64,000 bases of DNA from contig CAXXLV010000002.1 in the NCBI GenBank assembly GCA_963664305.2, positions 416,001 to 480,000 of the forward strand. The letters run 5' to 3'. The stretch comes from an uncultured Aliarcobacter sp. (GTDB lineage Bacteria; Campylobacterota; Campylobacteria; Campylobacterales; Arcobacteraceae). The translations under genes were made by a program, and so were the position numbers. Each line of letters begins with the position of its first letter. Within the stretch, counting starts at the first letter, position 1. The notes beneath the pieces were generated by a model, which searched no databases, had not been told where the DNA came from, and saw only the letters and a list, made by a program, of their open reading frames with translations. This document shows, piece after piece, positions 6,899-48,649 of this stretch.

Positions 6899-7403
6899 AA
6901 ATTATTTTTCTGGTTTTTGTTTTTATGAAGAATCAGAACTTTTTGATGAATATATTATAAGAAATGATTTTACAATTTCTGGTTTTTCTTATGGAGCTAT
7001 AAAGGCTTTTGAAGAAGCTTTAAACACACAAGATAGAGTTGATAAGCTTCAACTCTTTTCTCCTGCATTTTTTCAAAATTTCGATGAAAAATTTAAAAGA
7101 ACTCAACTTATGTATTTCAAAAAAGATGCAAATTCTTATGTCGAAACTTTTTTAAATAATGTAGTTTATCCATCAAATAAAGATATTTCAAAATATTTTA
7201 AACTAGGAACAATTGAAGAACTAGAAGAACTTTTAACTTATGTTTGGGATGAAGAAAAACTTCAAAAATTAGTTGATAAAGGAACTATAATTGAAGTTTA
7301 TTTAGGAGCTGATGATAAAATAATTGATTCTTTAAAAGTAAAAGAGTTTTTTCAAAAATTTGCAACAATATATTATATAAAAGAGAAAGGACATTTATTA
7401 TGA
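6885..7403 (+). CDS. bioV: Pimeloyl-ACP methyl ester esterase BioV (alpha/beta hydrolase)
   Basis: YFSGFCF start, GFSYG nucleophile elbow, C-terminal GHLL; position between the ftsH-like gene and mog as in Campylobacterota. Confidence 0.8.
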   Translation: MMTSKNYFSGFCFYEESELFDEYIIRNDFTISGFSYGAIKAFEEALNTQDRVDKLQLFSPAFFQNFDEKFKRTQLMYFKKDANSYVETFLNNVVYPSNKDISKYFKLGTIEELEELLTYVWDEEKLQKLVDKGTIIEVYLGADDKIIDSLKVKEFFQKFATIYYIKEKGHLL

Positions 7404-7936
7404 ATAAAGAAATAGCAAAAATTGGGATAATAACTGCAAGTGATAGAGCAAGTGCAGGAATATATGAAGATTTATCTGGGAAAGCTATTATTGATACATT
7501 AAATAGTTATTTAAAATCTTCTTGGGAACCAGTTTATAGATGTATCGCTGATGATCAAAAAACAATTGAAGATACTATGAAAGATTTAGTAGATAATGAA
7601 AAATGTTGTTTAGTTGTAACAACTGGTGGAACAGGTCCTGCAGCAAGAGATGTTACTCCAGAAGCTACAGAAGCTGTATGTGATAGAATGATGCCAGGAT
7701 TTGGGGAATTAATGAGAGCTGAATCTCTTAAATTTGTTCCAACAGCTATTCTTTCACGTCAAACAGCAGGTTTAAGAGGAAGTTCTTTGATAGTAAATCT
7801 TCCTGGAAAACCAAAATCTATAAAAGAGTGTTTAGATGCAGTTTTCCCTGCAATTCCTTATTGTATTGATTTAATGGAAGGTCCATATTTAGAGTGTGAT
7901 GAAGAAGTTATTAAAGCTTTTAGACCCAAAAAATAG
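7400..7936 (+). CDS. mog: Molybdopterin adenylyltransferase
   Basis: SDRAS, TTGGTGPAARDVTPEAT and NLPGKPKSI motifs. Confidence 0.95.
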   Translation: MNKEIAKIGIITASDRASAGIYEDLSGKAIIDTLNSYLKSSWEPVYRCIADDQKTIEDTMKDLVDNEKCCLVVTTGGTGPAARDVTPEATEAVCDRMMPGFGELMRAESLKFVPTAILSRQTAGLRGSSLIVNLPGKPKSIKECLDAVFPAIPYCIDLMEGPYLECDEEVIKAFRPKK

Positions 7937-34373: not shown

Positions 34374-37040
34374 ATGGAGAAAATTTTAGGTTTAATAAAA
34401 AATAAATTTATATTAATAATTTTATTATTTACTTTTGTTTATTCTCAAGAAAAAGTAACTCTTCAACTTAAATGGCTTCACCAATTTCAATTTGCAGGAT
34501 ATTATGTTGCAAAAGAGAAAGGTTTTTATAGTGAAGTTGGTTTAGAAGTTGAAATAAAAGAGAGAAATTTACAAGTTAATAATGTAGAACAAGTAATAAA
34601 TAATGAAGCTGAATATGGTATAGCTGATACTGCTTTATTGCTTTATAAAATGAAAGAAAAACCTGTTGTAATAGTAGCTCCAATTTTTCAACACTCTCCA
34701 AATGTTTTAATCTCTTTAAAAAGTAGTGATATTCTATCTCCCTATGATTTAGATGATAAAAATATTTCTGTTTTTGCAAACGATACTGATAGTTTGACTA
34801 TTTTAGCAATGTTAAAAAAGTTAGAAATTCAACCAAATTTTTTAGCACAAAGAGAAAATAACGATTATCAAAAATTAATAGATAAAGAGATAGATGTTAT
34901 TTCTTCATATTTAAGTAATGAACCTTTTTATTTTAAAGAAATAAATATGGATATAAATATAATTAATCCTAGAAATTATGGATTTGATTTATATGGTGAT
35001 ATTTTATTTACCAATAAAAATGAGGCTTTAAATCATCCTGAACGAGTTGAAAAATTTAAAAAAGCAACTTTAAAAGGTTGGGAATATGCATTAAATCATA
35101 AAGAAGAAGTAATAGAGCTAATTCATAAAAAATATAATAATAAAAAATCAATCGAACACCTAAAATATGAAGCAAATATAATTGCTGAGATGATTGATAA
35201 AGAAAATATTCCTCTTGGAACAATAAATGAGGGTAGATTAAAGTATATTACTGATTTATATCAAGATTTTGGGTTATTAAAAAATAGTTTAAATATAAAA
35301 GAAATTATTTTTCAAAGATTTAGAAATGATTTAGATTTAACAGCAGAAGAATTAAATTATTTAGAAAATAAAAAAGAGTTAACATATTGTATTGATCCAA
35401 ATTGGTTACCTTATGAAAAGAATTTGGAACAAAAACATGTGGGAATAACAGCTGATTATTTTAAAATTTTTCAAAAAGAGTTAGGGGTTTCTTTTCACTT
35501 TATACCTACATCTAGTTGGAGTGAAACATTATCTTTTGTAAGAGATAAAAAATGTGATATTTTATCTCTTGCCGCAGTTAATGAAGAAAGAAAAAAATTT
35601 GTAAACTTTACAAAATCTTATATACAATCTCCTTTAGTAGTTGCTACAAAAACTGATGAGATTTTTATCTCTGATATTTCAGATATAAAAGATAAAAAAG
35701 TAGGAATTGTAAAAGGATATTCTTTTATAAAATCATTAAAAGAAAAATATCCAGATATTAATATTGTAGAAGTAAAAGATATTGATGATGGACTAGAAAA
35801 AGTTAAAAACAAAGAGTTATATGGATTTATTGATACTTTAACAACTATTGCATATTCAATACAACATGAATATGCAACCCAATTAAAAATTAGTGGAAAG
35901 TTTGATGAAACATTAGATTTATCACTTGGAACAAGAATTGATGAACCAATATTAAATAGTATTTTTAATAAAGTCATAGATGGAATAACATTTGATGATA
36001 AACAAATGATTTTTAATAAATGGACATCAGTTAAAGTTGAAGAAAAAACTGATTATAAAGAAGTATTATTGTGGGTTTTGGGAACAATTTTTGTATTTGG
36101 AATAGTTTTATTTATTGTAATTGATGCAAATATGAAATTAAGTGAAGAGATAAAAAAAAGAGAAGAGGTTGAAAAAAGATTAAAAAGTTTTAATAAATTG
36201 ATTGATGAACATATCATATCTTCTTCAACTGATTTAAAAGGAAACATTACAGAAGTTTCAAGTGCTTTTTGTGAAATAAGTAAATATTCTAGAGAAGAAT
36301 TAATTGGTCAAAATCAAAATATAGTAAGACATCCTGATATGCCAAAAGAGGTTTATGAAGATTTATGGAGAACAGTTAGAGAAAATAGAGTTTGGACTGG
36401 TGAGATTAAAAATATTGCAAAAGATAAAACAGTTTATTGGGTAAATACAACAATTAGTCCTAAATTCAATGAATTTAATGAAAAAATAGGTTATGTTTCT
36501 ATTCGACATGATATTACTGATAAAAAGATCATAGAAGAGATTTCAATAATGGATGGTTTGACAAATATTTATAATAGAAGATTTTTTAATGATTTCTCAC
36601 CAAAATTTGTAAATGGTTCAAAAAGAGAAAATGATTACATATCTTTTTTAGTTATAGATGTGGATTATTTTAAACAATACAATGATACTTATGGTCATAT
36701 AATGGGTGATGAAGTTTTAAAAAAAGTAGCAGGTGTATTAAAAAATCATACTTCAAGATTGGATGATTATTGTTTTAGATTAGGTGGAGAAGAGTTTGGA
36801 ATATTATTTAAATCTAAAGATAAAAATAAAGCTTTTGAATTTTCAAAATTTATTTTAAAAGATATAGAAGAGTTAAAAATAGAACATAAAAATAGTAAAG
36901 TTAGTAGTTATATTACTGTATCTATGGGACTTTTTAGTGATTTTGCAAACAATATAAATAATATTGATGAAATGTATAAAAAAGCTGATGAGATGCTTTA
37001 TTTAGCAAAAGAATCTGGTAGAAATAGAGTGATTTGTTAA
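34374..37040 (+). CDS. Diguanylate cyclase: NMT1/THI5-like PBP, PBPb, TM, PAS and GGDEF domains
   Basis: LQLKWLHQFQFAGYY, CIDPNWLP, RHPDMP (PAS), DGLT..YNRR, DVDYFK.YND.YGH and RLGGEEF. Confidence 0.92.
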   Translation: MEKILGLIKNKFILIILLFTFVYSQEKVTLQLKWLHQFQFAGYYVAKEKGFYSEVGLEVEIKERNLQVNNVEQVINNEAEYGIADTALLLYKMKEKPVVIVAPIFQHSPNVLISLKSSDILSPYDLDDKNISVFANDTDSLTILAMLKKLEIQPNFLAQRENNDYQKLIDKEIDVISSYLSNEPFYFKEINMDINIINPRNYGFDLYGDILFTNKNEALNHPERVEKFKKATLKGWEYALNHKEEVIELIHKKYNNKKSIEHLKYEANIIAEMIDKENIPLGTINEGRLKYITDLYQDFGLLKNSLNIKEIIFQRFRNDLDLTAEELNYLENKKELTYCIDPNWLPYEKNLEQKHVGITADYFKIFQKELGVSFHFIPTSSWSETLSFVRDKKCDILSLAAVNEERKKFVNFTKSYIQSPLVVATKTDEIFISDISDIKDKKVGIVKGYSFIKSLKEKYPDINIVEVKDIDDGLEKVKNKELYGFIDTLTTIAYSIQHEYATQLKISGKFDETLDLSLGTRIDEPILNSIFNKVIDGITFDDKQMIFNKWTSVKVEEKTDYKEVLLWVLGTIFVFGIVLFIVIDANMKLSEEIKKREEVEKRLKSFNKLIDEHIISSSTDLKGNITEVSSAFCEISKYSREELIGQNQNIVRHPDMPKEVYEDLWRTVRENRVWTGEIKNIAKDKTVYWVNTTISPKFNEFNEKIGYVSIRHDITDKKIIEEISIMDGLTNIYNRRFFNDFSPKFVNGSKRENDYISFLVIDVDYFKQYNDTYGHIMGDEVLKKVAGVLKNHTSRLDDYCFRLGGEEFGILFKSKDKNKAFEFSKFILKDIEELKIEHKNSKVSSYITVSMGLFSDFANNINNIDEMYKKADEMLYLAKESGRNRVIC

Positions 37041-37104
37041 AATAAAATAACAAAAATTAAAGTTTTTTAGATAGTATAAATTTTTTTAAATTAAAGGAGA
37101 AATC

Positions 37105-37629
37105 TTGAAAAAAATAGCATTATCTATATTTTTTAGTGCAACTATGATTTTTGCACAAAACTTTACATTAAGTAGTTCAGATTTACAAGGACAATTAACA
37201 TCAAAACAAGTATTTAATGGTTTTGGATGTACTGGAGAAAATATATCTCCTGAACTTTCATGGAAAGATGCTCCAAAAGGAACTAAATCTTTTGCAGTTA
37301 CAGTTTATGATCCAGATGCACCAACTGGTTCTGGATGGTGGCATTGGGTTACTTTTGATATTTCAAAAGATAAATTTACACTTCCAACTGGTTTTGGAAA
37401 TAGTGAATCAAAAGATGTTATTCAAAGTGTAACAGATTATGGTAAAACTGGTTTTGGTGGTGCTTGTCCTCCTGTTGGAGATAAAGCTCATAGATATGTA
37501 TTTACTGTTTATGCTTTAGATATAGAAACTTTAGGATTAGATAAAAATGCAAATCCTGCACTTGTAGGATTTTATTTAAATGCTCACTCTTTGGCAAAAG
37601 CTTCTTTAATTTCATATTACGGAAGATAA
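37105..37629 (+). CDS. YbhB/YbcL (PEBP/RKIP-like) secreted protein
   Basis: Signal peptide; CTGENISP.LSW, YDPDAPTGSGWWHW, GACPP and HRY motifs. Confidence 0.92.
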   Translation: MKKIALSIFFSATMIFAQNFTLSSSDLQGQLTSKQVFNGFGCTGENISPELSWKDAPKGTKSFAVTVYDPDAPTGSGWWHWVTFDISKDKFTLPTGFGNSESKDVIQSVTDYGKTGFGGACPPVGDKAHRYVFTVYALDIETLGLDKNANPALVGFYLNAHSLAKASLISYYGR

Positions 37630-37631
37630 AA

Positions 37632-38501
37632 CTATTTAAATCTATTTTTTAGAAACTCTATCAGGGTTTCAAAAAGTAGATTTTTTGTTTTTTCTTTATG
37701 ATAAACCAAATAAAATTCTCTTTTTAATTTCAAATTTTTTAGTTTTATTTGAAATAGTTTTTTCTTTTTTAACTCTTCTTCTACAATAATTTTTGATATA
37801 GCTGTAACCGTGTCTGGATTATTTAAAACAATTTTTTTAATCTCTTCAAAATCTTGTAATTGCATAAAAATATCTAACTCTTTTGATATTTCTCCTATTT
37901 GATTTATAAATATTTCCCTTGTTCCTGAACCAATTTCTCTTAAAATCCATCTTTTTTTTATGGTATCAATAAAAGCCTCTTTTAAATAGTTCTTATCACT
38001 TGTAACTACAATCAATTCATCATCACTAAGTTTTTCTTTTATTAAACTTGAGTTTTGTGTATCAACTTCAATTAAACCAATATCAAGTTCAGATTTTAAT
38101 ATTTTTTCTATAATTTTACTTGAATTAATGGTGGAAATATCAAGTTTTACATCTTTGTATTTTGTCAAAAAATCATAATAAATATTTGGCATTATGTAGT
38201 TTGAAATAGTTCTACTTGAAGCTATTTTTATATTTCCTGCCAGTTTATTTTCTTGGAAAATAGTTTGTGCATCCATAAGTGCTAAATAGTGAGAAAGAGT
38301 CTTTTCTTTAAAATATTTTCCCTTTTCATTTAAAATTAGTTTTTTACCAATTCTGTTAAATAGTTGTTCATTTAGTGAATTTTCTAGAGATTTTATTGCT
38401 AGAGAAATAGCTGATTGACTAATATTTAATTCACTTGCTACTTGAGTAACTTGAGGATTTTCACTTAGTTTATAAAAAAAGTGTAGTTCTTTAAGGGTCA
38501 T
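37632..38501 (-). CDS. LysR-family regulator (YeiE/CysL-like)
   Basis: MTLKEL...ISQSAIS.AIKSLE HTH; S.TI.NY, D.GLIE and WILRE.GSGTR; divergent from a yeiH-like gene. Confidence 0.9.
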   Translation of the reverse strand: MTLKELHFFYKLSENPQVTQVASELNISQSAISLAIKSLENSLNEQLFNRIGKKLILNEKGKYFKEKTLSHYLALMDAQTIFQENKLAGNIKIASSRTISNYIMPNIYYDFLTKYKDVKLDISTINSSKIIEKILKSELDIGLIEVDTQNSSLIKEKLSDDELIVVTSDKNYLKEAFIDTIKKRWILREIGSGTREIFINQIGEISKELDIFMQLQDFEEIKKIVLNNPDTVTAISKIIVEEELKKKKLFQIKLKNLKLKREFYLVYHKEKTKNLLFETLIEFLKNRFK

Positions 38502-38600
38502 AATTTTCCTTATTAAAAATATTAATCATTATATTAAAATTAATATATTTTACAAATTAATAAATAGGAGTTATACTTACAAAATCAAAGGAGTTGTATT

Positions 38601-39623
38601 ATGAAAATTAATAATTTAGATATGAAAAATACTTTTTATGGAGTTTTATTTGTTGGATTTTTTTCTTTAATAGCAACGATTTTAGCAGGAGTAGATTTTT
38701 TTAGAAATTTAGGAATTAGCTCACTTATAATAGGAATAGTTTTAGGAATTTTTTATGCAAACACATTTAAAAAAAGATTTTTAAATTTTGGAAAAAATGG
38801 AATAATATTTTCAACAAAATATATTTTAAGATTTGGAATTATTTTATATGGATTTAGATTGACTTTTCAAAATTTGCAAGAAGTAGGATTTAACGGAATT
38901 TTTATTGCTTTTTTTATAGTTTTTTTTACTTTTATTTTTGGATACTTTATTGGGGTAAAAGTTTTAAAAATTGACCGTGAGATTGCTATTTTATGTAGTG
39001 CTGGAAGTTCTATTTGTGGAGCAGCAGCTGTTATGGCAACACAAAGTGTTCTAAAAAATGAAGCTTATAAAAGTGCCATTGCAGTATCTTTTGTAGTGAT
39101 TTTTGGAACAATAGCTATGTTTTTGTATCCATTTTTGTATAAATTAGGAATATTTGATTTAAGTGCTTCTCAAATGGGAGTTTATATAGGTGCAACTTTA
39201 CATGAAGTAGCTCATGTTGTGGGTTCTTCAAATAGTTTGGGAGAAGTAGTATCTAAAGATGCAATTATTGTAAAAATGATAAGAGTAATATTTATAGTTC
39301 CTTTTTTAATTTTATTATCAATTTGGTTGATTAAAACAGGTTTTCATAATAAAAAAGAGAAATCAAAAGTTATTATTCCTTGGTTCGCTTTGATATTTAT
39401 AGTTGTTGTGGGATTCAATTCTTTTGGCTTTTTGAGTATAAAAACAATAGAAAATATAAATTATTTAGATAATTTTGCTTTAACAATGGCAATGACAGCC
39501 TTAGGAATGGAAACAAGTTTTGATAAGTTTAAAAATATTGGTATGAAACCTTTTTATTTATCTTTGATTTTATTTGTTTGGTTGATTATTATTGGATATT
39601 TGTTAGTAAAATTCTTTTTTTAA
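38601..39623 (+). CDS. YeiH/PSE family membrane protein (putative sulfate exporter)
   Basis: LRFGIILYGFRL, GSSICGAAAV.A, HEVAHV and IVKM.RV motifs. Confidence 0.92.
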   Translation: MKINNLDMKNTFYGVLFVGFFSLIATILAGVDFFRNLGISSLIIGIVLGIFYANTFKKRFLNFGKNGIIFSTKYILRFGIILYGFRLTFQNLQEVGFNGIFIAFFIVFFTFIFGYFIGVKVLKIDREIAILCSAGSSICGAAAVMATQSVLKNEAYKSAIAVSFVVIFGTIAMFLYPFLYKLGIFDLSASQMGVYIGATLHEVAHVVGSSNSLGEVVSKDAIIVKMIRVIFIVPFLILLSIWLIKTGFHNKKEKSKVIIPWFALIFIVVVGFNSFGFLSIKTIENINYLDNFALTMAMTALGMETSFDKFKNIGMKPFYLSLILFVWLIIIGYLLVKFFF

Positions 39624-39651
39624 ATAAGTATCTTTAAAAAGATACTTATTT
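39622..39651. terminator. Bidirectional terminator
   Basis: AAATAAGTATCTTT-AA-AAAGATACTTATTT. Confidence 0.7.
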
Positions 39652-39652
39652 T

Positions 39653-40483
39653 TTACCAATTATTTTTCATTAAATCTTGTTCAAACATAGCTTGTGTTAA
39701 AACATCATAACCTTTTAATTCTTCAGCAGTTGTAACAACCCATTTATTTAAACCTTCCATTTGCATCATTTTTTTGATGATTGGTTCATTTGGGTCTTGT
39801 GAAAGCATCATATCAACAAAAGTTTTTTTCACTTTTTCATCTAAACTATTGAGAGCTGTAAAGTTACAATGACAATATCCCTCACTTACATAAAAAGATT
39901 CGATTTCACCTGCAGGAAATAATCCCTCCTCAATAATTCTAATCCAAGTGCTAATACCAATTGCTCCTGCATCAATTTTATCTTCTTTTATAGCTTCAAT
40001 AATATCAAATTCACTTCTTCCTGTATCTCCATGTTTTCCTAAATTAGAATTAAATCTAATAATTTCAACATCATTGATTTTTTCTTTTAGTTCATTTTGT
40101 AGATATTTTAAAGGTAAAATTGCAGCTTGAGCTGAATCAGCACTTCCAAGACCAAATTTTTTGCCTTTTAAATCATGAATAGATTTAATACCACTTTTTG
40201 CTTTTGTGATAAACACAGATTTAAAATCAATATCCGTATCTCTCATAAGTAAAGCTTGAGCTTTGTGATTACTTAATTCATAAGTTCTTACCCAAGCAAC
40301 ATTTGTATTCCAAGCAATATCTATTTTCCCAGATAATAAATATTCAATTTGTGCTTCATAATTTGAAAATAGAATATAATCAAGTCTTACACCATTATCA
40401 TTGAAATAATCTCTAATAATATCCCAAATCGGTACAACTTTTGGGTCATAAGCAACTGAACCCACAACTATTGGTTTTTGCAT
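39653..40483 (-). CDS. PhnD-like PBP-fold protein without signal peptide (cytoplasmic)
   Basis: SNYE..I..L..G.IDIAW and DLKGK.FG.G...S.Q PBP-II pattern. Begins MQKPIVVGSVAYDPK with no signal peptide or lipobox; carries KHGDTG and YCHCNF. Confidence 0.8.
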   Translation of the reverse strand: MQKPIVVGSVAYDPKVVPIWDIIRDYFNDNGVRLDYILFSNYEAQIEYLLSGKIDIAWNTNVAWVRTYELSNHKAQALLMRDTDIDFKSVFITKAKSGIKSIHDLKGKKFGLGSADSAQAAILPLKYLQNELKEKINDVEIIRFNSNLGKHGDTGRSEFDIIEAIKEDKIDAGAIGISTWIRIIEEGLFPAGEIESFYVSEGYCHCNFTALNSLDEKVKKTFVDMMLSQDPNEPIIKKMMQMEGLNKWVVTTAEELKGYDVLTQAMFEQDLMKNNW

Positions 40484-40492
40484 TTTTTATCC

Positions 40493-41620
40493 TTATAAAA
40501 TTGATTGATTTGTTAAAGCTTTTCCAAGCCAAGTTGTAAGAACATCAGTACTTGGAGCCATAACTTGTGCTGCAAGTGAATCTCTTAATAGTCTTTCTAT
40601 ATTTATTCTTTTAGCGTATGCTGTACCTCCACCAATCTTCATAGCTAAAGTACAAACTTTTACAGCCATTTCAGAAGCATGAATTCTTGCAGCTAATACA
40701 TTTGCTTGAGCCATTGGGTCAGCTTCAATTACACTTTTTGCAGCACTTAATGTAAAATATTTCGCACTTGCTGCATTTGTATAGATTTCAGAGATATGAT
40801 TTTGAACAGTTGGGATATTACATAAAGCTGTTTCATCACTATATTTTCTATTTATTGAATACTCATTGATTGAATTACAAGCATTTAAAGCAACTCCACT
40901 ATAAACAGCTGCTAATCCCATGATAAAAAATGGACCAACACAATTAAATATTTGATCTAGTCCCGTTCCACTCTCCCCAATTTTTGATTTTTCATCAATT
41001 TTTACATCTTTTAAAATCATTGGACAAGAAGCATTTCCTCTCATACCAAGACCATTCCAAGCACTCTCTTCAAAAGTAATTCCAGCTAAATCTTTTGAAA
41101 TAATCCAGTTATCTAAACCTTCAGTTTCAACAGAGTTTGCATCAATTAAATAATAATCAGCATAAGTAGCAGATGTAACAAAACTTTTTCTACCATTCAT
41201 AAATAAAGTTTCATTTTCTTTTGTAACTTTAATTTCTGGATTATAAAAGTGTGTTCCTGTTCCACTTTCACTATATGCAAGTGCTAACATAATTTCACCA
41301 TTTGCAATTCTTGGTAAAAACTCTTTTTTTAGTTCATCACTTCCATAAGTTGCAATACAATTTGTTGCAACATTGTGCATCATATAACATAAAGCTGTTG
41401 TGGCGCAATAATTTGCAAAAGCTAAAATAGTTTGTGTATGGTCTTGAAAATTTAATCCCATTCCTCCAAACTCTTTTGGAACTAAAAGACCTGTTAATTT
41501 TTTTTCTTTAATTGCTTTAAAACTTTCAACTGGAAATTTTCCCTCAATATCCACATTGTCTGTATATGGTGCAATATTTTCTTTTGCAAACTCTAACATT
41601 TCATTATATAAATTTGACAT
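40493..41620 (-). CDS. Acyl-CoA dehydrogenase-fold flavoprotein (non-canonical)
   Basis: VPKEFGGMG, ALAYSE..TG, NGRKSFVTSA, GLGMRG, GGGTAY and IERLLRD motifs; the usual YEG position reads MAP. Confidence 0.88.
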   Translation of the reverse strand: MSNLYNEMLEFAKENIAPYTDNVDIEGKFPVESFKAIKEKKLTGLLVPKEFGGMGLNFQDHTQTILAFANYCATTALCYMMHNVATNCIATYGSDELKKEFLPRIANGEIMLALAYSESGTGTHFYNPEIKVTKENETLFMNGRKSFVTSATYADYYLIDANSVETEGLDNWIISKDLAGITFEESAWNGLGMRGNASCPMILKDVKIDEKSKIGESGTGLDQIFNCVGPFFIMGLAAVYSGVALNACNSINEYSINRKYSDETALCNIPTVQNHISEIYTNAASAKYFTLSAAKSVIEADPMAQANVLAARIHASEMAVKVCTLAMKIGGGTAYAKRINIERLLRDSLAAQVMAPSTDVLTTWLGKALTNQSIL

Positions 41621-41631
41621 TTTTTTTCCTA

Positions 41632-42882
41632 CTACATAAAATTTGGTGTATGAACTTTAGAAATATCATTTGCTAAATCTTCATCCATACCTATATCTAC
41701 TAATCTTTTTATTCTATTTGTATTCATTTTTTGTTTTAGTTCTTCAACTAAATCAAATCCTCTTTTATAATCCTCTGGCTCATCACTTCCACCTGCAAGA
41801 ATTGCTAATGATTCAAGTAAAATAGAAGATTCACTATTTATTTCATCCATAAACTCTTTTCTTTTATAAGCAGTATTTTTTAAAGCATTTATTCTATTTG
41901 GATTTTGTTCTATTGCTGATTTTACATGTTCAACACCATAAGCAACATGTCGCATTTCATCTCTTTTTGCAAGGCGAATGATTTTTTTTGTTGCATCATC
42001 AGGCATATGTTTTTCCAAAAATGAGAGTAAATCTACAAAAGTACCTTCACCCATAACATGAAGTAAAAATGAGCTTTTTATATAATCATCTTCTTTAAAT
42101 AAAGAAAAAAGTGAACGTTGAGTAACTTCACTTGAGTATTGAAATCCTCCTCCATTCGCATTTGCTCTTTTTGTAAAAACTTCAATATGTCTTGCTTCAT
42201 CATTCATTAGTGATGATAAAAAAAGAGGAACTTCCATATAGTATGGATTTATTTTACTTATAAATTTTCCAGGAATATATAAAGCTGAAAATTCATTTTC
42301 AACTAAATAAGTCATGATTTGGCATACAGCTTTTTCTATAACAGGATTTAGATTTGGTATTTCATTCCAAGGAATATCAGTTGTTGCATTCCATTGAAGA
42401 TTTTTTCCTTCTTCATATAAAACTGAAACAGGATTTGACCAAACTTGTTCTTTAAAAGATAATTCAAAATCATAAATTGGACTATTTTCTTGAGTTATGA
42501 TTCCTCTTGTTAAAAGCCCATTATCAATTGGAGCTTTTGCTAAAATTTCTTCACTTAACTCTAAATCTTTTAGTTTTGGATTTGAAGTATCAATACCTTT
42601 CATTTTTTTGCCCCAAGAAGCTTTTGAAGTAAAAGAATTTTTACTTATTTTTTGGATTTTATAAGAGTATTGATTTTTTAATGCAACTCTACCTAAGTAG
42701 AAATGACCTTTAAGTTTTGCCCATCCTTGAAGTTCAATTTCAATATTTGCTTTAAGTGAAACAATTTCAATTATTTCATAAATATTTGCTAATAAAAAAG
42801 CATTCTCAAGTTTTAGAAATAAGGCTTTAGAAGGAGGTAAATCACCAGTAAATATAGATATACAATGATTTTGATTATTCAA
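41632..42882 (-). CDS. Ferritin-like diiron protein with N-terminal TusA/SirA-like domain
   Basis: E (LVENE), DEARH, E (MGEG) and DEMRH diiron ligands; the first ~80 aa fit the TusA pattern ending W...GH; TTG start 6 nt after GGAGA. Confidence 0.8.
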   Translation of the reverse strand: MNNQNHCISIFTGDLPPSKALFLKLENAFLLANIYEIIEIVSLKANIEIELQGWAKLKGHFYLGRVALKNQYSYKIQKISKNSFTSKASWGKKMKGIDTSNPKLKDLELSEEILAKAPIDNGLLTRGIITQENSPIYDFELSFKEQVWSNPVSVLYEEGKNLQWNATTDIPWNEIPNLNPVIEKAVCQIMTYLVENEFSALYIPGKFISKINPYYMEVPLFLSSLMNDEARHIEVFTKRANANGGGFQYSSEVTQRSLFSLFKEDDYIKSSFLLHVMGEGTFVDLLSFLEKHMPDDATKKIIRLAKRDEMRHVAYGVEHVKSAIEQNPNRINALKNTAYKRKEFMDEINSESSILLESLAILAGGSDEPEDYKRGFDLVEELKQKMNTNRIKRLVDIGMDEDLANDISKVHTPNFM

Positions 42883-42978
42883 AATGAATCTCCAAAATTA
42901 GATTTTAATTTTGGCCATGCAGTAAATTGTTTAAATTAACGATGGAATCTCTACCTGAGATCTCGAATCGTTATTCTA
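42883..42978 (-). promoter_or_regulatory. Structured 5' leader and TGn-TAGAAT promoter of the three-gene operon; candidate cis-regulatory RNA
   Basis: Three consecutive hairpins, the last (CCAAAATTA/TAATTTTGG) covering the start of the RBS; GAGATTC present twice. Confidence 0.5.
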
Positions 42979-43040
42979 ACAAAAAGATTTAAAAAGTAAA
43001 TAAAATTTTACCAAAATAGTAAAATCAAAAAATGATTTTA

Positions 43041-43775
43041 CTATTTAACTTCAATTCCAAATTTTTCAAGTAGATTTACCCAAACAATGTTATTTCCATT
43101 TTTATCAAATATTGTTGGTGTTCCTTGAACGTTTAAAGACATTCCAATTTGAACTTGTTCTTCTAATTGTTTTTCAAGTTTCGCTAGTTGAGCTTGTGTA
43201 TATTTTGCATTTTTTACTTTATCTAAATTTTCACTTGCATCAAACATTGCATCTATTTTTGCATTTAATGTTTTTTGACTCATAATATATAATGATAAAT
43301 CTTTTGCATTTTCATGTGATTCTAAAGGAAAATAAAAAACTCTTATTTTTACTTTATCTTTTATTTGTGGAAGATATGATTCTAGTTTTTTACAATAAGG
43401 ACATTCAGGGTCTGTAAATAAATAATATTCTTCCTTTCCTGTTCCATAAACAAATGCTTCTTTACCTTTTGCATTTGTTAAATCAACAGGAGCTGATATT
43501 TTCATTCCATTATTTACATCAATAACATCACCAGAAAGAATAAGTTTTTTATCTTTTGTTAAATAAATTTCATCACTATTTCCTTGAACATTGATAGTTA
43601 AAATATATAAACTTCCAACATCAAAAGCTTTTACTATTTTTATTTGTGCTCTTTTAAATAATTCTAATTGTTCCATTTGAACAATTTCGTTTTTTGATAC
43701 TTCTTTTGTAGCAGCATTTAAACTACAAGTTAGGATAAGAAAAACAATTAATATTTTTTTAATTAACTCAAACAT
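43041..43775 (-). CDS. DsbC/DsbG-family thiol:disulfide interchange protein
   Basis: Signal peptide, N-terminal dimerisation segment, FTDPECPYCKK and QGTPT cis-Pro loop. Confidence 0.9.
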   Translation of the reverse strand: MFELIKKILIVFLILTCSLNAATKEVSKNEIVQMEQLELFKRAQIKIVKAFDVGSLYILTINVQGNSDEIYLTKDKKLILSGDVIDVNNGMKISAPVDLTNAKGKEAFVYGTGKEEYYLFTDPECPYCKKLESYLPQIKDKVKIRVFYFPLESHENAKDLSLYIMSQKTLNAKIDAMFDASENLDKVKNAKYTQAQLAKLEKQLEEQVQIGMSLNVQGTPTIFDKNGNNIVWVNLLEKFGIEVK

Positions 43776-43985
43776 AAAGTTTCCTAATATAAATTTTTTG
43801 CGTATTGTATCTATTTTCCCTTGATTATAAGTCTAAAAAGGGATTTGTACTTTAAAATAAGATTTAATAATTTTAAGAAATGCTATTTTAATGCTACTAT
43901 AATGAAAAAATAATATTTTTTTTTAAGCTTTGTTTTTAACTTTTTTGATGTAGAATATGAAGAAATTTTAATATAAGGCAAAATT

Positions 43986-45275
43986 ATGGAAAATGCAAAA
44001 AAATTTTTAGTTGCAGGATATATTGTAACAATAGTTTCATTAGGTTTTTTGTCTTATTTATCCAGTGTAAAAAGTGATTATATTTTAGTATCAAGTTTAC
44101 TTTTCTTTTGTGTTATTTCATTCTTATTTTTTTATGGAATAAATTTGTTAAAAAATCAAAAAGAATTGGTTTTAATTGATGAAAAAAAAGAGGAAGATTT
44201 TTTAGAAAAAGAGTTTATAAATGATTTAACTAATTGTAGTTTATCATTTTCAAAAAATATCTTCAACACAAAAATTAATGCAAAAACAAAAAATGATGAA
44301 TTTCAATCAATTGCAAATAATATGAATCAAACAGTAAGTAATTTAACAAATTGTTTTGATGAAATGTTAGATTTTTTTGAGAAGTTCCAAAAAAATGATT
44401 TTACAGTTGAAATTAAGAATAAACAATCAGAGCAATTACAAAAAATTGTTGAAGCTGTTAATAAATTAAATGTAAAAATCTCAAGAATGCTTTTAAGTAG
44501 TTTAAAAAGTGGAAATATGTTCAAAAAAAATGCAGATGCATTAAAAAAGAATATGGAATTAGTAAGTGCAAATATAGTTACTCAATCTGCAATTCTAGAA
44601 GAGACATCAGCATCAATGGAAGAGATAACAAGTAGTGTTAGAAATAATAATTTAGATGTTGATAAAATGTTAACTTATTCTAATGAACTTTTAATATCTG
44701 TTCAAAGTGGTTATAAAAGTGCAAAAAACAGTGCAGAGTTGATGGATAAAATAAATGATAAAACAAAGTCAATTGAAGAAGCAATAAGTATTATTGACCA
44801 AATTGCATTTCAAACAAATATTTTATCTCTTAATGCTGCTGTTGAAGCAGCAACTGCTGGTGAAGCTGGAAGAGGATTTGCTGTTGTTGCAGCAGAGGTT
44901 AGAAATCTAGCTTCAAGAAGTGCTGAAGCAGCTAGAGAAATAAAATCACTTGTTGAAACAGCTACAAAAGAGGCAAACAATGGGAAAAATGCTTCTACAG
45001 ATATGATAAAAGAGTATGATGTTTTAAACGAAAATATTCAAAAAACAAAACATATTATAGAAAATATTTCTAATTCTTTAAAAGAACAAGAAAGAGGAAT
45101 AGAGCAAGTAAATGCAGCTGTTGCTGATTTAGATAAAGCAACACAAGAAAATGCATTAAGAGCTCAAGAAACAAGAGAAATTGCAAATCAAAATGATGAA
45201 ATGGCTACAACAATGGTTGTAGAAACTAATAAAACAAATTTCTTTGGAAGAGATGATTTCAATAGAAAAAGCTAA
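43986..45275 (+). CDS. Methyl-accepting chemotaxis protein with minimal periplasmic loop
   Basis: Two adjacent TMs; [37 protein letters not shown] signalling hairpin. Confidence 0.95.
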
Positions 45276-45281
45276 AAAATA

Positions 45282-45309
45282 GAGATTTAAAGTTTAAGCT
45301 TTAAATCTC
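45282..45309. terminator. Bidirectional terminator
   Basis: GAGATTTAAAG-N6-CTTTAAATCTC flanked by A and T tracts. Confidence 0.7.
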
Positions 45310-45314
45310 ATTTT

Positions 45315-46211
45315 TTAAAGAAGATTAAATAAAATTCCTGTCGTTAAAAACGAAATAATTATCCCATATCCTACAATCGCTGAACTAAGTCTTGGGGCAA
45401 GTCCTGCCATCGAAGCTATTGCACCTGCTGTTATCATAGGAGCCATTCCTGCTTCCATAATTGATACAATTGAAGCTTGATTATCCCAAGCAAATATTTT
45501 ACAAATAACAAATGCAATAGTTGGAGCAAGAATAAGTTTTACAATTAAAGCTACACTAAAAGGTTTTATCTCTTCACGTGGTAATTTTAATTGAAGTTGA
45601 AGACCAACAGCAACTAAAGCAATTGGTACAATGGTACTTGCAAATGAACTTAAAACTTTTGAAATTATTGGATTAAATTCTACACCTATTAAAAATAGAG
45701 CAACAACTAAAGATAAAAAAGGTGGAAATGTTAAAACTTTTAGTGTAATGATTTTAAAAGTGATTTTTGAATTATTTGAATAATAAGAAGCTATAAATGT
45801 TCCATAAGTAGCAAGAGCAATAAAAGTTCCTAATTGGTCATAAACTAAAACATATGGCATTGCACTTTCGCCCATATAAGCATTTATTATTGGAATTCCT
45901 AAAAAAGAACTATTTGTTAGGATTGAAACTAGCATTAATGAACCCGTTATCTCTTTTGAAAAAGAGAAAAATTTTGATAAAAGAAGAATTAATATTGCAC
46001 TTATAGCCATAACAAGCCAAGCTACAATAATAGGTATAATCATATCAATTGAAAAACTAAGTTTTGGAATTTGAAGTAAAATCATTGCAGGAAGTGAGAT
46101 ATAAATTGCAAATTGATTTAAAATAGTTGGTGCATCTTTTGAAAAAATATTTAATCTATTTATTACATAGCCAATAACAATGGCCAATAAGATTAATACA
46201 AAATTTTCCAT
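45315..46211 (-). CDS. AEC (auxin efflux carrier) family transporter
   Basis: YISLPA, NSSFLGIP, FPPF, P.ALVAVG, KLILAP and EAGMAP motifs. Confidence 0.9.
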   Translation of the reverse strand: MENFVLILLAIVIGYVINRLNIFSKDAPTILNQFAIYISLPAMILLQIPKLSFSIDMIIPIIVAWLVMAISAILILLLSKFFSFSKEITGSLMLVSILTNSSFLGIPIINAYMGESAMPYVLVYDQLGTFIALATYGTFIASYYSNNSKITFKIITLKVLTFPPFLSLVVALFLIGVEFNPIISKVLSSFASTIVPIALVAVGLQLQLKLPREEIKPFSVALIVKLILAPTIAFVICKIFAWDNQASIVSIMEAGMAPMITAGAIASMAGLAPRLSSAIVGYGIIISFLTTGILFNLL

Positions 46212-46215
46212 TTAT

Positions 46216-46587
46216 TTAGTCACAAAAATTATTTTGACAAGGGTTATCAGATGTGATTTTTCCAAACTCTTTTACATAATCTATTCCCCATTTATGCATC
46301 TCTTCAAGTACGGCTCTTAGATTTTCTCCTGCTTTTGTTAAACTATATACAACCTTTGGTGGAACACTAGCAAAACATTCTCTATTAATGATATTTTTTT
46401 CTTCTAATTCTTTTAATTTTATAGTTAAAGTTTTTTGTGTTATTTCACTTATTATTTCATGTAATTCTTTAAATCTTTTTTCACCATCAAGTAAGTGCCA
46501 AATAATTGCTAATTTCCATCTATCATTAAAAATATCAAGTGTTACGGCAACACTACATCTATATTCTTTATCATTTATATAATACAT
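46216..46587 (-). CDS. HxlR/DUF24 (MarR-type) redox-sensing regulator
   Basis: N-terminal Cys (CSV..TL), RWK..I, RFKEL, ITQKTL...LKELE and VPPKVVYSLT. Confidence 0.92.
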   Translation of the reverse strand: MYYINDKEYRCSVAVTLDIFNDRWKLAIIWHLLDGEKRFKELHEIISEITQKTLTIKLKELEEKNIINRECFASVPPKVVYSLTKAGENLRAVLEEMHKWGIDYVKEFGKITSDNPCQNNFCD

Positions 46588-46642
46588 ATTAAATTCCTTA
46601 TTTTTACAATTTCAATTATAACATAATAAAAATTAATTCCTA

Positions 46643-46664
46643 TTACTTACCTAAAGTAAAGTAA
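46643..46664. promoter_or_regulatory. Possible HxlR-family operator
   Basis: TTACTT-N10-AAGTAA inverted repeat between the regulator and the divergent mdaB operon. Confidence 0.4.
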
Positions 46665-46717
46665 GAGTAAATTAAGTTTATTGTTAATATAATTTTCAAA
46701 ATTAAAAAGGAGCAAAA

Positions 46718-47299
46718 ATGAAGAAAGTTTTAATTTTAAATGGACATCAATATTATGATGTTGTGGCTAAAGGTGAATTGACTCAACATTTTATTGATAA
46801 AGCAAATGATTTTTTTATAAAAAATGGATTTGAAGTAAAACAAACTCACATTGAAAAAGGTTACAATGTAGAAGAAGAGTGTGAAAAATTTGAATGGGCT
46901 GATTATGTTTTATTTCAATATCCAGTTTATTGGATGGGTGTTCCTTGGATTGCAAAAAAATATTTTGATGAAACATTTACTCAAGGAAGACATTATGCAA
47001 GTGATGGAAGAAGTAGAAGTGATGCAAGTAAAACTTATGGAACAGGAGGATTATTAAAAGGTAAAAAGTATATGTTAAGTTTAACGTATAATTGTCCAAC
47101 AAGTGAATTTAGTAATGAAAATGGTTTCTTTGATGGTTTATCTTTAGATGAAGCTCATGTGGCAGTTCATAAAACTTTCCAATTTTGTGGATTAGAGCCA
47201 TTAAAAACTTATTCTGTTCATGATATTTTCAAAGGAGATTTAGATTTAGCTAATGAGTTAGAAAAATTTGAATCAGTTTTAAAAGAGAATTTTTTATAG
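46718..47299 (+). CDS. mdaB: NADPH:quinone reductase MdaB (flavodoxin-like fold)
   Basis: LILNGH, QYPVYWMGVPW..KKY.D, DGRSR...YGTGG and YMLSLT.N.P motifs. Confidence 0.88.
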   Translation: MKKVLILNGHQYYDVVAKGELTQHFIDKANDFFIKNGFEVKQTHIEKGYNVEEECEKFEWADYVLFQYPVYWMGVPWIAKKYFDETFTQGRHYASDGRSRSDASKTYGTGGLLKGKKYMLSLTYNCPTSEFSNENGFFDGLSLDEAHVAVHKTFQFCGLEPLKTYSVHDIFKGDLDLANELEKFESVLKENFL

Positions 47300-47308
47300 G
47301 AAAAAAAT

Positions 47309-47605
47309 ATGAAAAATATTGTAATAGTTGCAACTATAAAAGTGAAAAAAGGTTTTAAAGATGAAGTTTATAATGAACTTATAAAATTGCATAAAGCAAC
47401 TCATGAATTTGATGAAGGTTGTATTCAATATGATTTACATAAAGATTTAAGTGATGAGGATAGTTTTACTTTTGTTGAAACTTGGGAAAATCAAGAACTT
47501 TTATCTTTACATGAAACAAAAGAGCATTTTAAAAACTTTGTATCTAAAATCGAAAATAAAATAGATGGTTTAACAATCAATAAATTAGAAAAATTAGAAA
47601 TCTAA
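47309..47605 (+). CDS. Putative quinol monooxygenase (ABM/YgiN family)
   Basis: EGCIQYDLH, F.FVETW...L..H...HF motifs; follows mdaB. Confidence 0.88.
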   Translation: MKNIVIVATIKVKKGFKDEVYNELIKLHKATHEFDEGCIQYDLHKDLSDEDSFTFVETWENQELLSLHETKEHFKNFVSKIENKIDGLTINKLEKLEI

Positions 47606-47617
47606 AAAGGATTTTTT

Positions 47618-48649
47618 ATGAGCTTATTACTAAAAAGTGGAAATATTGGAGCATTAGAGTTAAAAAATAGAGTTGTAATGCCACCTATGTGTATGTATAA
47701 AAGTGATAATAGTGGAGAAATAAAAGATTTTCATAAATATCACTATGTATCAAGAGCCTTAGGTGGAGTAGGGTTTATTATAGTTGAAGCAACTGCAATA
47801 GAGCCAAAAGGAAGAATTTCATCAAACGATTTAGGCCTTTGGGATGATTCTTTGATAGAAAAGCATAAACAATTAAATAAAGATATACACTCTTTTGGTG
47901 CTAAAACAGCAATTCAAATTGCCCATGCTGGAAGAAAGTCAACTGTTATTGATTCAACTCCTATTGCTCCAAGTTCAATTGCTTTTTCAAAAGAAGCTCC
48001 ATTTAAAATTCCTAAAGAAGTTTCAATAGCAGAGATTGAAAATATTAAAAAATTATTTATAAATGCAGCTTTTAGAGCAAAAGAGGCAGACTATGATGCT
48101 ATTGAACTTCATGCAGCTCATGGCTATTTATTATGTGAGTTTTTATCACCAATTTCAAATAATAGAACAGATATTTATGGTGGAACTTTAGAGAATAGAT
48201 GTAGATTAGTTTTAGAAATAGCCCATGAGATAAAACAAAAATTAGATTTGCCTTTGATTGTTAGAATTAGTGCTGATGAGTGGATGAATGAAGGTTGGAA
48301 TATAGAAGATTCTATTTATTTATCAAAAGAGTTGGAAAAAATCGGAGTTGATGTTATACATGTATCAAGTGGTGGAAATTTAGAAAAACCTGATAATGCT
48401 CCAGCAATTCAAGCTTTATATCAAGCTAATTGGGCAAAAAAAATAAAAGAAAATGTAAATATTCCTGTTATTGCAGTTGGATTAATTACAACAGCAACAG
48501 AAGGAGAGTATCTACTTGAAAACAATTTTTGTGATTTTGTGGCTTATGGTCGAGAGTTACTTAGAAATCCAAATTTAGTTTTTTATGTAGCAAATGAATT
48601 TAGAGAAAAAGAGAGCATAAATAGTTCTTATCAAAGAGCATTTATATAA
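47618..48649 (+). CDS. NADH:flavin oxidoreductase (Old Yellow Enzyme, YqjM/NamA-like)
   Basis: KNRVVMPPMCMY, QIAHAGRK, ELHAAHGYLL, N.RTD.YGG..ENR and GRELLRNP motifs. Confidence 0.92.
   Translation: MSLLLKSGNIGALELKNRVVMPPMCMYKSDNSGEIKDFHKYHYVSRALGGVGFIIVEATAIEPKGRISSNDLGLWDDSLIEKHKQLNKDIHSFGAKTAIQIAHAGRKSTVIDSTPIAPSSIAFSKEAPFKIPKEVSIAEIENIKKLFINAAFRAKEADYDAIELHAAHGYLLCEFLSPISNNRTDIYGGTLENRCRLVLEIAHEIKQKLDLPLIVRISADEWMNEGWNIEDSIYLSKELEKIGVDVIHVSSGGNLEKPDNAPAIQALYQANWAKKIKENVNIPVIAVGLITTATEGEYLLENNFCDFVAYGRELLRNPNLVFYVANEFREKESINSSYQRAFI

Follow-up and report, generated by a model that had tools for sequence, protein, structure and literature searches.

A 64,000-nt window of contig CAXXLV010000002.1 (assembly GCA_963664305.2), from an uncultured Aliarcobacter sp., encodes three consecutive genes, designated g1, g2, and g3, that very probably form a dedicated enzyme cassette serving neither transport nor beta-oxidation. 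Their products are a TusA-fold protein joined to a diiron domain (g1), a flavoprotein of the acyl-CoA dehydrogenase (ACAD) fold (g2), and a cytoplasmic protein of the PhnD fold (g3). The explanation we favor, held tentatively and at somewhat less than even weight, is an enzyme system that is self-contained, cytoplasmic, and transferred en bloc, with a compound of selenium or sulfur as its substrate. The window has a G+C content of about 25%, and the nearest named relatives of its proteins come from Aliarcobacter and other Arcobacteraceae. In window coordinates, the three genes are as follows.

42882..41632, minus strand: g1, 416 amino acids, TTG start codon, GGAG 7 nt upstream
41620..40493, minus strand: g2, 375 amino acids, AGGA upstream
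40483..39653, minus strand: g3, 276 amino acids, AGGA upstream

A first-pass annotation of this DNA had described three co-oriented genes with gaps of 9-11 nt, ribosome-binding sites, and a leader. The open reading frames and an alignment of ten leader sequences agree with it; g1 and g2 are separated by 11 nt, g2 and g3 by 9 nt. A 158-nt spacer lies between g1 and the DsbC-like gene upstream, and yeiH, downstream, is convergent with g3.

The trio behaves as a mobile unit. In a sample of 301 Campylobacterota genomes, g1 was found in 30, and stretches of 17 kb compared around 20 of these 30 showed the order g1-g2-g3 in every case (20/20), within flanks that represent at least eight unrelated contexts. 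Loci were also anchored on g3, taking the best 80 of 581 relatives. The g2-g3 pair is conserved, with g2 directly upstream of g3 in 73 of these 80 loci, and two of the seven misses have no room for it on the contig. All three genes are adjacent in 18 of the 80; g1 is adjacent in 19, in the order g1-g2-g3 or g2-g3-g1, and these 19 loci span Campylobacterota, Brachyspira, Paenibacillus, Acidobacteriota, Dehalococcoidia, two Actinomycetota metagenome-assembled genomes (MAGs), and one member of the Gemmataceae. No conserved cluster of ABC permease or ATPase genes surrounds the g3 loci, and no phn, ptx, or htx genes occur among their conserved neighbors; the grouping of the three genes apart from permeases, as the annotation had envisaged it, is what the neighborhoods display.

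Within the genus, 7 of 25 genomes yield a strong g3 match, and the cassette together with its leader behaves as an insert, present or absent, between yeiH and the dsbC-like gene. The trio lies exactly between these two genes in the window and in two relatives, lysR, yeiH, and dsbC follow one another without interruption in 9 of the 11 loci from relatives (L134-L138, L140-L143), and the empty site itself appears in contigs of two wastewater RNA-library runs, where position 39639 is joined to 43042 with six other letters at the junction. Since the flanking genes keep their order without the trio, they are bystanders, and the LysR (YeiE-like), YeiH, and DsbC-like proteins, which had been considered as parts of the system, were rejected on that ground. 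The adjacent LysR scores 168.5 bits to a model for "selenium-metabolism LysR", below the cut-off. Logan contigs, metagenomic and metatranscriptomic, from wastewater and compost, cover all three genes, and the g3/g2 junction is bridged in two records from one study; such contigs are no guide to transcription, start sites, or expression levels.

The g1 protein consists of a TusA-fold N-terminal domain (residues 1-79), a linker, and a ferritin-like diiron domain (residues ~150-410). Its AlphaFold model (pLDDT 82.3, pTM 0.88) contains an alpha/beta domain at 6-77 and a helical bundle at 149-410, connected by a poorly predicted linker. The N-terminal domain matches E. coli TusA (3lvj_C) with a VIA-align Z of 11.9 and an rmsd of 2.2, 76 of 77 residues being aligned; further matches are YeeD in 8j4c (Z 11.2) and the SirA-like 3hz7 (Z 10.1). 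It therefore has the fold of the TusA/SirA/YedF/YeeD carrier domain, but the carrier cysteine is missing in all 40 g1 proteins compared, its place being taken by proline in the window's g1, and a domain so altered cannot carry a persulfide or perselenide. The Pfam model PF01206 gives no match to g1 at E<=0.01, although some g1 relatives bear it and are named "TusA-related sulfurtransferase".

The diiron site is intact. Its ligands are E197, E229-x2-H232, E279, and E309-x2-H312; all 40 family members have E195, E197, H232, E279, E309, and H312, and 39 have E229. The complete diiron set and the TusA-like domain without cysteine, both read earlier from the window alone, thus turn out to be properties of the family. 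An additional histidine, H275, is near-invariant (37/40), and the extreme C-terminus, HT(P/A)NFM (residues 411-416, window 41635-41652), recurs in 38 of 40 members, across phyla. The R2 subunits of ribonucleotide reductase carry a C-terminal tail that binds the partner subunit, and by analogy the HT(P/A)NFM tail could likewise be a partner-binding tail.

Sequence models place the diiron domain in no named family. All of its library matches fall below threshold: DUF455 (PF04305) at 25 against 34.3 bits, AurF (PF11583) at 16.9 against 29.6, and R2lox (NF006200) at 32.6 against 194. By structure, VIA-align pairs it best with the VlmB homologue 6d9f_A (Z 20.4, rmsd 3.7, 252 residues), followed by an ADO-like protein (Z 20.1), R2lox (Z 17.8), and AurF/CmlI (Z 11.8-12.0), and Foldseek concurs in returning R2lox, VlmB, ADO, and PaaA. 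The VlmB azoxy synthase (6d9f/8wvr), R2lox (4hr0), ADO, and AurF/CmlI share with g1 a four-helix-bundle core bearing E, ExxH, E, and ExxH, but identity to them is only 12-20%, and the TusA-fold domain, the HT(P/A)NFM tail, and H275 are g1's own. Longer, fused forms of g1 were sought at E<=1e-10 and none was found, which is weak evidence; 69 shorter matches are apparently fragments on short contigs, with no clear split gene among them.

The g2 protein matches all three Pfam ACAD domains above their gathering scores (PF02771, 80.3 bits; PF02770, 60.9 bits; PF00441, 50.5 bits), and it retains the general ACAD signatures S117-E118, K145-S146, and R346-D347. Aligned by phmmer, V-M-A-P-S of g2 stands opposite the catalytic Y-E-G-T-S of 5ol2_C and 2jif_A, with Ala355 at the position of the Glu. 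Among 69 g2 family sequences M354-A355-P356 is at least 90% conserved, and the alternative helix-G position (residues 230-233), which we take to be that of the Glu in IVD and LCAD, reads P-F/W-F-I/N, with no Glu in any of the 69. The replacement of YEG by VMAPS and the lack of a substitute Glu, first remarked on in the single window sequence, thus hold throughout the family, and this family-wide loss of the catalytic Glu makes ordinary alpha,beta-dehydrogenation by the ACAD base mechanism impossible. Two histidines, H82 and H124, are invariants specific to the family.

The best NCBIfam match of g2 is the Rv1679/FadE16 family (NF049984), at 271.1 bits against a cut-off of 600; acryloyl-CoA reductase (171 bits) and 3-sulfinopropanoyl-CoA desulfinase (128 bits) follow. 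Monooxygenases of the ACAD fold score far less against their own cut-offs (DszC 53.9/850, SfnB 92.7/430.9, and HsaA 36.2/450 bits), so that g2 is, as judged by family scores, nearer to true ACADs than to these monooxygenases, and the analogies to DszB and DszC drawn in the first-pass annotation find no backing in sequence. The 3-sulfinopropanoyl-CoA desulfinase (NF042439) deserves comparison. It has the ACAD fold, is not known to carry the catalytic Glu, performs sulfur chemistry, and is the second- or third-best NCBIfam match of g2 and its relatives, at 99-178 bits. These scores are nevertheless far under the cut-off of 600, no CoA-thioester context exists at g2, and we know of no g3-type partner protein for the desulfinase.

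The g3 protein scores 92.7 bits to PF12974, 38.6 bits to the NMT1/THI5 Pfam model, and 69.8 bits to the PhnD model TIGR03431, whose cut-off is 261.1. Its closest family is the Rv1680 substrate-binding protein (SBP)-like family (NF049985), aligned over the full length (3-272/1-265) at 321.1 bits with the cut-off of 400 not reached; "putative selenate SBP" (TIGR04553) stands at 85.7 bits. In the model (pLDDT 96.7) the first beta-strand begins at residue 5, which leaves no N-terminal hydrophobic segment and hence no signal peptide. Foldseek returns PhnD, PtxB, HtxB, ArrX, and AioX at the top, PhnD 7s6g with E 4e-22 and TM 0.73, and Thi5 (4h6d) at rank 46 with TM 0.53. The two-lobe fold is thus that of the PhnD, PtxB, HtxB, AioX, and ArrX binding proteins, and it is also that of the periplasmic binding protein-fold enzymes THI5, DszB, and MqnA/D. 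What distinguishes g3 from the binding proteins is its cytoplasmic location, the lack of conserved transporter partners, a changed anion loop, invariant KHGD and HC motifs, and its pairing or fusion with flavoenzymes. The annotation's description of g3 as PhnD-like, with neither signal peptide nor nearby permease or ATPase, is therefore upheld.

Conservation in g3 is strict: of 29 positions checked, 21 never vary among 81 sequences whose overall identities are 41-87%. They are G8, Y12, W20, Y42, W58, N59, R81, D84, G113, D116, and S117, together with G149-K-H-G-D153, H205, C206, F208, E243, and W248, so that the KHGDTG and YCHCNF segments singled out by the annotation prove to contain invariant KHGD and HC. 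N-termini resembling signal peptides occur in just 4 of 31 aligned family representatives, and those four lack GKHGD. The anion-binding S-S-T-S-G of PhnD 7s6g corresponds to A-D-S-A-Q-A in g3. In the Protein Atlas, g3 clusters with its own kind alone, under names of phosphonate SBPs.

Relatives of g3 number 1221 representatives, 72 of them at E<=1e-30. Four of them (P0162, P0164, P0218, and P0222) combine the g3-type domain with an FMO-like flavin monooxygenase in one polypeptide. P0162 and P0164 were found in transcriptome collections of eukaryotes (protists/algae). At an identity of 33-34%, the two fusions compared, P0218 and P0164, retain MRDxD, DSPQ, GKHGD, and HC. Flavin oxidation partners are thus a recurring trait of the family of g3-type binding proteins. 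Tandem forms with two g3 domains also exist (P0127, P0130, P0167, P0189, P0194).

The third component of the system is interchangeable. Among the g3-anchored loci, a radical SAM gene of the Rv1681 family follows g3 in 48 of 80 (503-540 bits, cut-off 380), and a DoxD-like/Rv1678 membrane protein gene precedes g2 in between 32 (counted by blast) and 39 (counted by clusters) of the 80; g1 occurs together with the radical SAM or the DoxD-like gene in none. Thirteen loci, mostly from Gemmataceae, have neither partner. In one of the Gemmataceae (L099), a 78-residue TusA-like gene (5422-5658) and a TusA-like::MetE-like fusion gene (6058-7575) stand directly upstream of g2-g3, both with the carrier Cys present, and the N-terminal domain of the fusion shows homology to the g1 N-terminal domain (blastp E values as low as 1e-16). 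A TusA::MetE-like fusion, the MetE-like part being of the methionine-synthase type, is found in a second Gemmataceae genome as well, elsewhere in the genome (L109:916-3009). A CysE-like gene follows g3 in L042.

The loci with the radical SAM gene correspond to the actinobacterial set Rv1678-Rv1679(FadE16)-Rv1680-Rv1681(MoeX), known by family names only (NCBIfam NF049986, NF049984, NF049985, and NF049973). Rv1679-Rv1680 is homologous to g2-g3, in the same order, with V-M-A-P in place of the catalytic Glu, no signal peptide, and the same g3 motifs. Actinobacterial relatives of g2 and g3 pass the NCBIfam cut-offs (602-619 and 490-497 bits), whereas the window's proteins fail them (271 against 600; 321 against 400), and the g3 proteins of other g1-type loci score 336-355 bits to NF049985. 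The two sets differ in that the window has the TusA-fold/diiron g1 where the actinobacterial set has its radical SAM enzyme and its membrane protein of the DoxD-like type. That the place of g1 can be taken either by these two or by a TusA(Cys)::MetE-like protein suggests one difficult step that is carried out with or without O2. We consider the chances about evenly balanced that the diiron and radical SAM enzymes are alternative solutions for one step.

Two of the genes found beside the cassette belong to selenium metabolism. In two Sulfuricurvum loci (L060 and L063) and in G202, the gene immediately upstream of g1, in the same orientation, is selD (351-357 bits), and in a Campylobacter MAG (L031) the gene immediately downstream of g3 is yedE/fdhT (591 bits, cut-off 350); neither gene occurs in the remaining loci of the best 80. 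By genome, selD is present in 30 of 30 g1-positive Campylobacterota and 197 of 271 g1-negative ones, in 8 of 8 g1-type genomes of other phyla (one of them, G338, unpublished), in both Gemmataceae genomes that have the g2-g3 pair only, and in 4 of 4 g1-positive Paenibacillaceae (94 of 136 overall, a comparison for which a 2x2 test has no power). All 40 g1-bearing genomes examined encode selD, against a background of 69-75% and among related genomes that are not independent. Among five actinobacterial genomes of the radical SAM type, three have selD and two do not. Apart from the Rv1680 family, the named family that g3 relatives match best is "putative selenate SBP" (TIGR04553, 86-118 bits). PMC2432076 reports SirA/TusA-like proteins as a neighbor of SelD; no ACAD, PhnD-like, or ferritin-like partner is mentioned in what the selenium comparative-genomics searches returned or in the passages of PMC2432076.

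Two observations on selD genes may be recorded here. The selD of the window's own genome (G000:C2:225560-226480) contains one in-frame TGA and so probably encodes a protein with selenocysteine; many genomes in the sample of the phylum show this too. In the Paenibacillaceae genome G449, g1 is in two pieces (C1:3923133-3924391) and the selD match is partial (C1:5238435-5239121, model positions 32-260), which may reflect joint decay.

The recurrence of partners of a sulfur or selenium type, namely TusA, MetE-like, CysE-like (L042), and DoxD-like proteins together with selD and yedE, points to a chalcogen substrate, and a selenium or sulfur compound is accordingly our leading, though still tentative, candidate, with a probability we would place a little under one half. 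The annotation had proposed that sulfur or selenium is mobilized from an organic substrate; the choice of elements gains some support from the adjacency of selD and yedE, the co-occurrence with selD, and the TusA::MetE-like and DoxD-like partners, while the mobilization itself gains none. Under the favored explanation, the invariant polar and Cys-His pocket of g3 would capture a small polar substrate and present it to the flavin of g2, or help to transform it. With its FAD, g2 would oxidize the bound compound by a route other than ACAD dehydrogenation, or would shuttle electrons, and the diiron centre of g1 would activate O2, either for a second oxidative step or for re-oxidation. The TusA-fold domain of g1, lacking its Cys, would most likely serve as a docking module that tethers g1 to the g2-g3 pair, a role proposed because the same domain carries a MetE-like catalytic domain beside g2-g3. 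We infer from these parts a physical complex, an order of reactions, and a path of electrons as well as a class of substrate. The O2-independent counterpart of g1 would be the pair formed by the radical SAM enzyme and a DoxD-like protein linked to quinones, and in organisms of the g1 type the system would be tied to SelD-dependent use of selenium.

A more specific form of this proposal, to which we assign a rather low probability, is that the cassette represents an unrecognized, O2-using, SelD-linked selenium trait in which g3 binds a selenium compound that g2 and the TusA-docked g1 convert. The product would be selenide for SelD, or else a new selenium metabolite made from SelD's product. The sister forms (radical SAM plus DoxD-like in actinobacteria, the tuberculosis bacillus among them, TusA::MetE-like in Planctomycetes, FMO fusions in algae) would perform equivalent chemistry without O2 or on sulfur.

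Several findings weigh against a selenium or sulfur assignment and against the reading of g1 as one of two convergent solutions. With selD backgrounds of 75% and 69%, the co-occurrence of g1 and selD has little power; related genomes are not independent, and the cases in which the cassette adjoins selenium genes come down to about two evolutionary events among 40 loci. The genome from which the window comes has both selD and yedE far from the cassette. The missing cysteine of the TusA domain of g1, which bars it from carrying a persulfide or perselenide, also counts against such an assignment. The two of five radical SAM-type genomes without selD imply that selenium is not the universal substrate, and the acidic residue in the anion loop of g3 argues against a simple oxyanion ligand. 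In a FastTree phylogeny of g3, the radical SAM type forms a single clade and the g1-type loci are basal and spread over phyla, so the mutual exclusivity of g1 and radical SAM represents roughly one replacement rather than repeated convergence. Given the high background of selD and the shared ancestry, the selenium link is a lead and not a result.

The most serious competitor, less probable than the favored explanation yet well short of negligible, keeps the same architecture and gives it a chemistry unrelated to selenium or sulfur, on some other metabolite or cofactor, such as amine N-oxygenation or a quinone- or cofactor-type oxidation, with the selenium signals coincidental. It draws on the closest structural relative of the diiron domain, a homologue of the azoxy synthase VlmB, on the FMO fusions, which are as compatible with N-oxygenation as with oxygenation of sulfur or selenium, on the cassette flanks, which mostly hold unrelated housekeeping genes, and on the selD figures just given. 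It has more difficulty with two independent adjacencies to single-copy selenium genes, where a rough chance expectation is ~0.15 (~60 immediate neighbor slots and ~5 selenium genes per ~2000), and with the recurrence of TusA-fold, TusA(Cys)::MetE-like, CysE-like, and DoxD-like partners. A different idea, which we regard as improbable, makes g3 itself the substrate: a pocket residue (H205-C206 or K150-H151) would become a protein-derived cofactor or single-turnover donor, with two alternative maturases, the O2-using g1 and the radical SAM enzyme of the Rv1681 family, and with g2 as the oxidant. The HMP synthase THI5, of the periplasmic binding protein fold, donates a residue of its own in a single turnover, and alternatives that are O2-dependent or use radical SAM chemistry are typical of protein and cofactor maturation. 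The invariance of g3, its stoichiometric pairing with g2, its match to the NMT1/THI5 model, and the presence of Thi5 in the fold list all agree with such a role, but Thi5 ranks only 46th there, and the eukaryotic fusion of g3 to FMO better fits a substrate-binding module.

Phosphorus is a markedly poorer candidate still. A cytoplasmic pathway in which g3 binds phosphonate, phosphite, or a similar P-X compound and g1 and g2 oxidize it, as the annotation had allowed for, would explain why the best solved relatives of g3 are PhnD, PtxB, and HtxB and why PF12974 matches; but the anion-binding S-T-S-G of 7s6g becomes D-S-A-Q-A in g3, with the Asp invariant, the score to TIGR03431 is far under its cut-off, and phn, ptx, and htx genes are missing from the conserved neighborhood. 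The option has no support beyond the fold. Least credible of all is that the trio consists of three ordinary, unrelated neighbors, an ABC binding protein, a fatty-acid ACAD, and an iron-storage ferritin or ribonucleotide reductase subunit. The names in public records match that description, but the conservation data contradict it, with synteny strict across phyla, insertion as a cassette, no signal peptide, no conserved permease/ATPase cluster, and a catalytic Glu lost throughout the family.

The expectation that the genes would be mislabeled as ABC transport plus fatty-acid oxidation is matched by database names, which are generic or misleading, and by PMC8562490, where Rv1680 is a "putative phosphonate transporter component" by structure similarity. 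Three papers name Rv1680; PMC12195134 lists it among efflux genes, and fadE16, to judge by titles, receives mentions in omics-type listings. Literature searches on the Rv1679-Rv1681 genes, DUF455, and selenium comparative genomics turned up no publication naming two of Rv1679, Rv1680, and Rv1681, nothing functional for DUF455 in bacteria, and no pathway assigned to the trio, in line with the annotation's supposition that the cluster lacked one. The diiron form of the cassette is outside the curated families, and those searches did not find it in print.

A compact gene set with strictly invariant residues, found in seven or more bacterial phyla and, as domain fusions, in algae among the eukaryotes, is systematically mislabeled as transport, beta-oxidation, or ferritin, and its core pair g2-g3 is homologous to Rv1679-Rv1680 of the tuberculosis bacillus. 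Whatever the substrate, the cassette is of interest on three counts: it newly exemplifies the recruitment of a binding-protein fold to partner an enzyme, it includes an ACAD fold that has lost the catalytic base, and it presents what is likely an O2-dependent and radical SAM pair for one reaction. The selenium link, if true, would add a new step to the way bacteria acquire or use selenium, for which few components are known, and would explain the supply of selenium for formate dehydrogenase in gut microaerophiles (enterohepatic Helicobacter, Campylobacter, Brachyspira, Aliarcobacter).

The noncoding elements associated with the cassette are the following.

42973..42981, minus strand: likely extended -10 promoter element TGTTAGAAT, from promoter scan and conservation
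42883..42972, minus strand: conserved 5' leader of ~90 nt with three predicted hairpins
~42962-42946; 42945-42942/42918-42915; 42913-42907/42899-42893, minus strand: leader hairpins predicted by RNAalifold
39622..39651, no strand assigned: A+T-rich hairpin of 13 bp in the gap that separates the convergent genes g3 and yeiH, from folding; also one edge of the cassette

The promoter scan of the leader region gave TTTACT-16-TAGAAT, with TG. In an alignment of the sequences upstream of g1 from ten Arcobacteraceae loci (the window plus L006, L007, L008, L009, L010, L011, L025, L026, and L034), the TAGAAT/TAAAAT -10 hexamer is kept in 10 of 10, a TGnTAGAAT-like element is common to them, and 42973..42981 likely acts as a promoter element. 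Mean column identity of the aligned leaders is 78%, and RNAalifold finds 18 pairs, with compensatory changes in three; the third hairpin directly abuts the GGAG ribosome-binding site. Folded as a single sequence, the leader is no better than its shuffled versions (z -1.24), and an Rfam scan of 36000-46000 found no family for it, the sole match being a chance snoRNA at E 0.63. The motif GAGATTC is present twice, once within the 3' arm of hairpin 1 and once at the ribosome-binding site, a repeat permitting an alternative pairing that could mask or unmask that site. The leader is a candidate for a new cis-regulatory RNA, and a ligand for it, should one exist, would reveal which pathway the cassette serves.

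Downstream, the annotation had placed a terminator. A hairpin is present at 39622-39651 (-12.3 kcal/mol, z -4.67), but because the U-run is on the yeiH side it can be no more than a bidirectional terminator candidate that g3 and yeiH share. A consensus terminator scan detected no terminator, having missed this hairpin because the stem is A+T-rich.

Among the farther neighbors in the window (an aldo-keto reductase, an SBP-PAS-GGDEF protein, PEBP, MCP, and an HxlR-flavodoxin-ABM-OYE group), no link to the cassette was found. Two of them have a recognizable character of their own. The plus-strand gene at 34374-37040 encodes an 888-residue protein with NMT1/THI5-like, SBP_bac_3, PAS, and GGDEF domains that looks like a binding-protein-type sensor diguanylate cyclase. 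At 46216-48649, an HxlR-type regulator gene is divergent from genes for a flavodoxin-like protein, an ABM monooxygenase, and an OYE-type NADH:flavin oxidoreductase, which together look like a cluster for electrophile or quinone detoxification.

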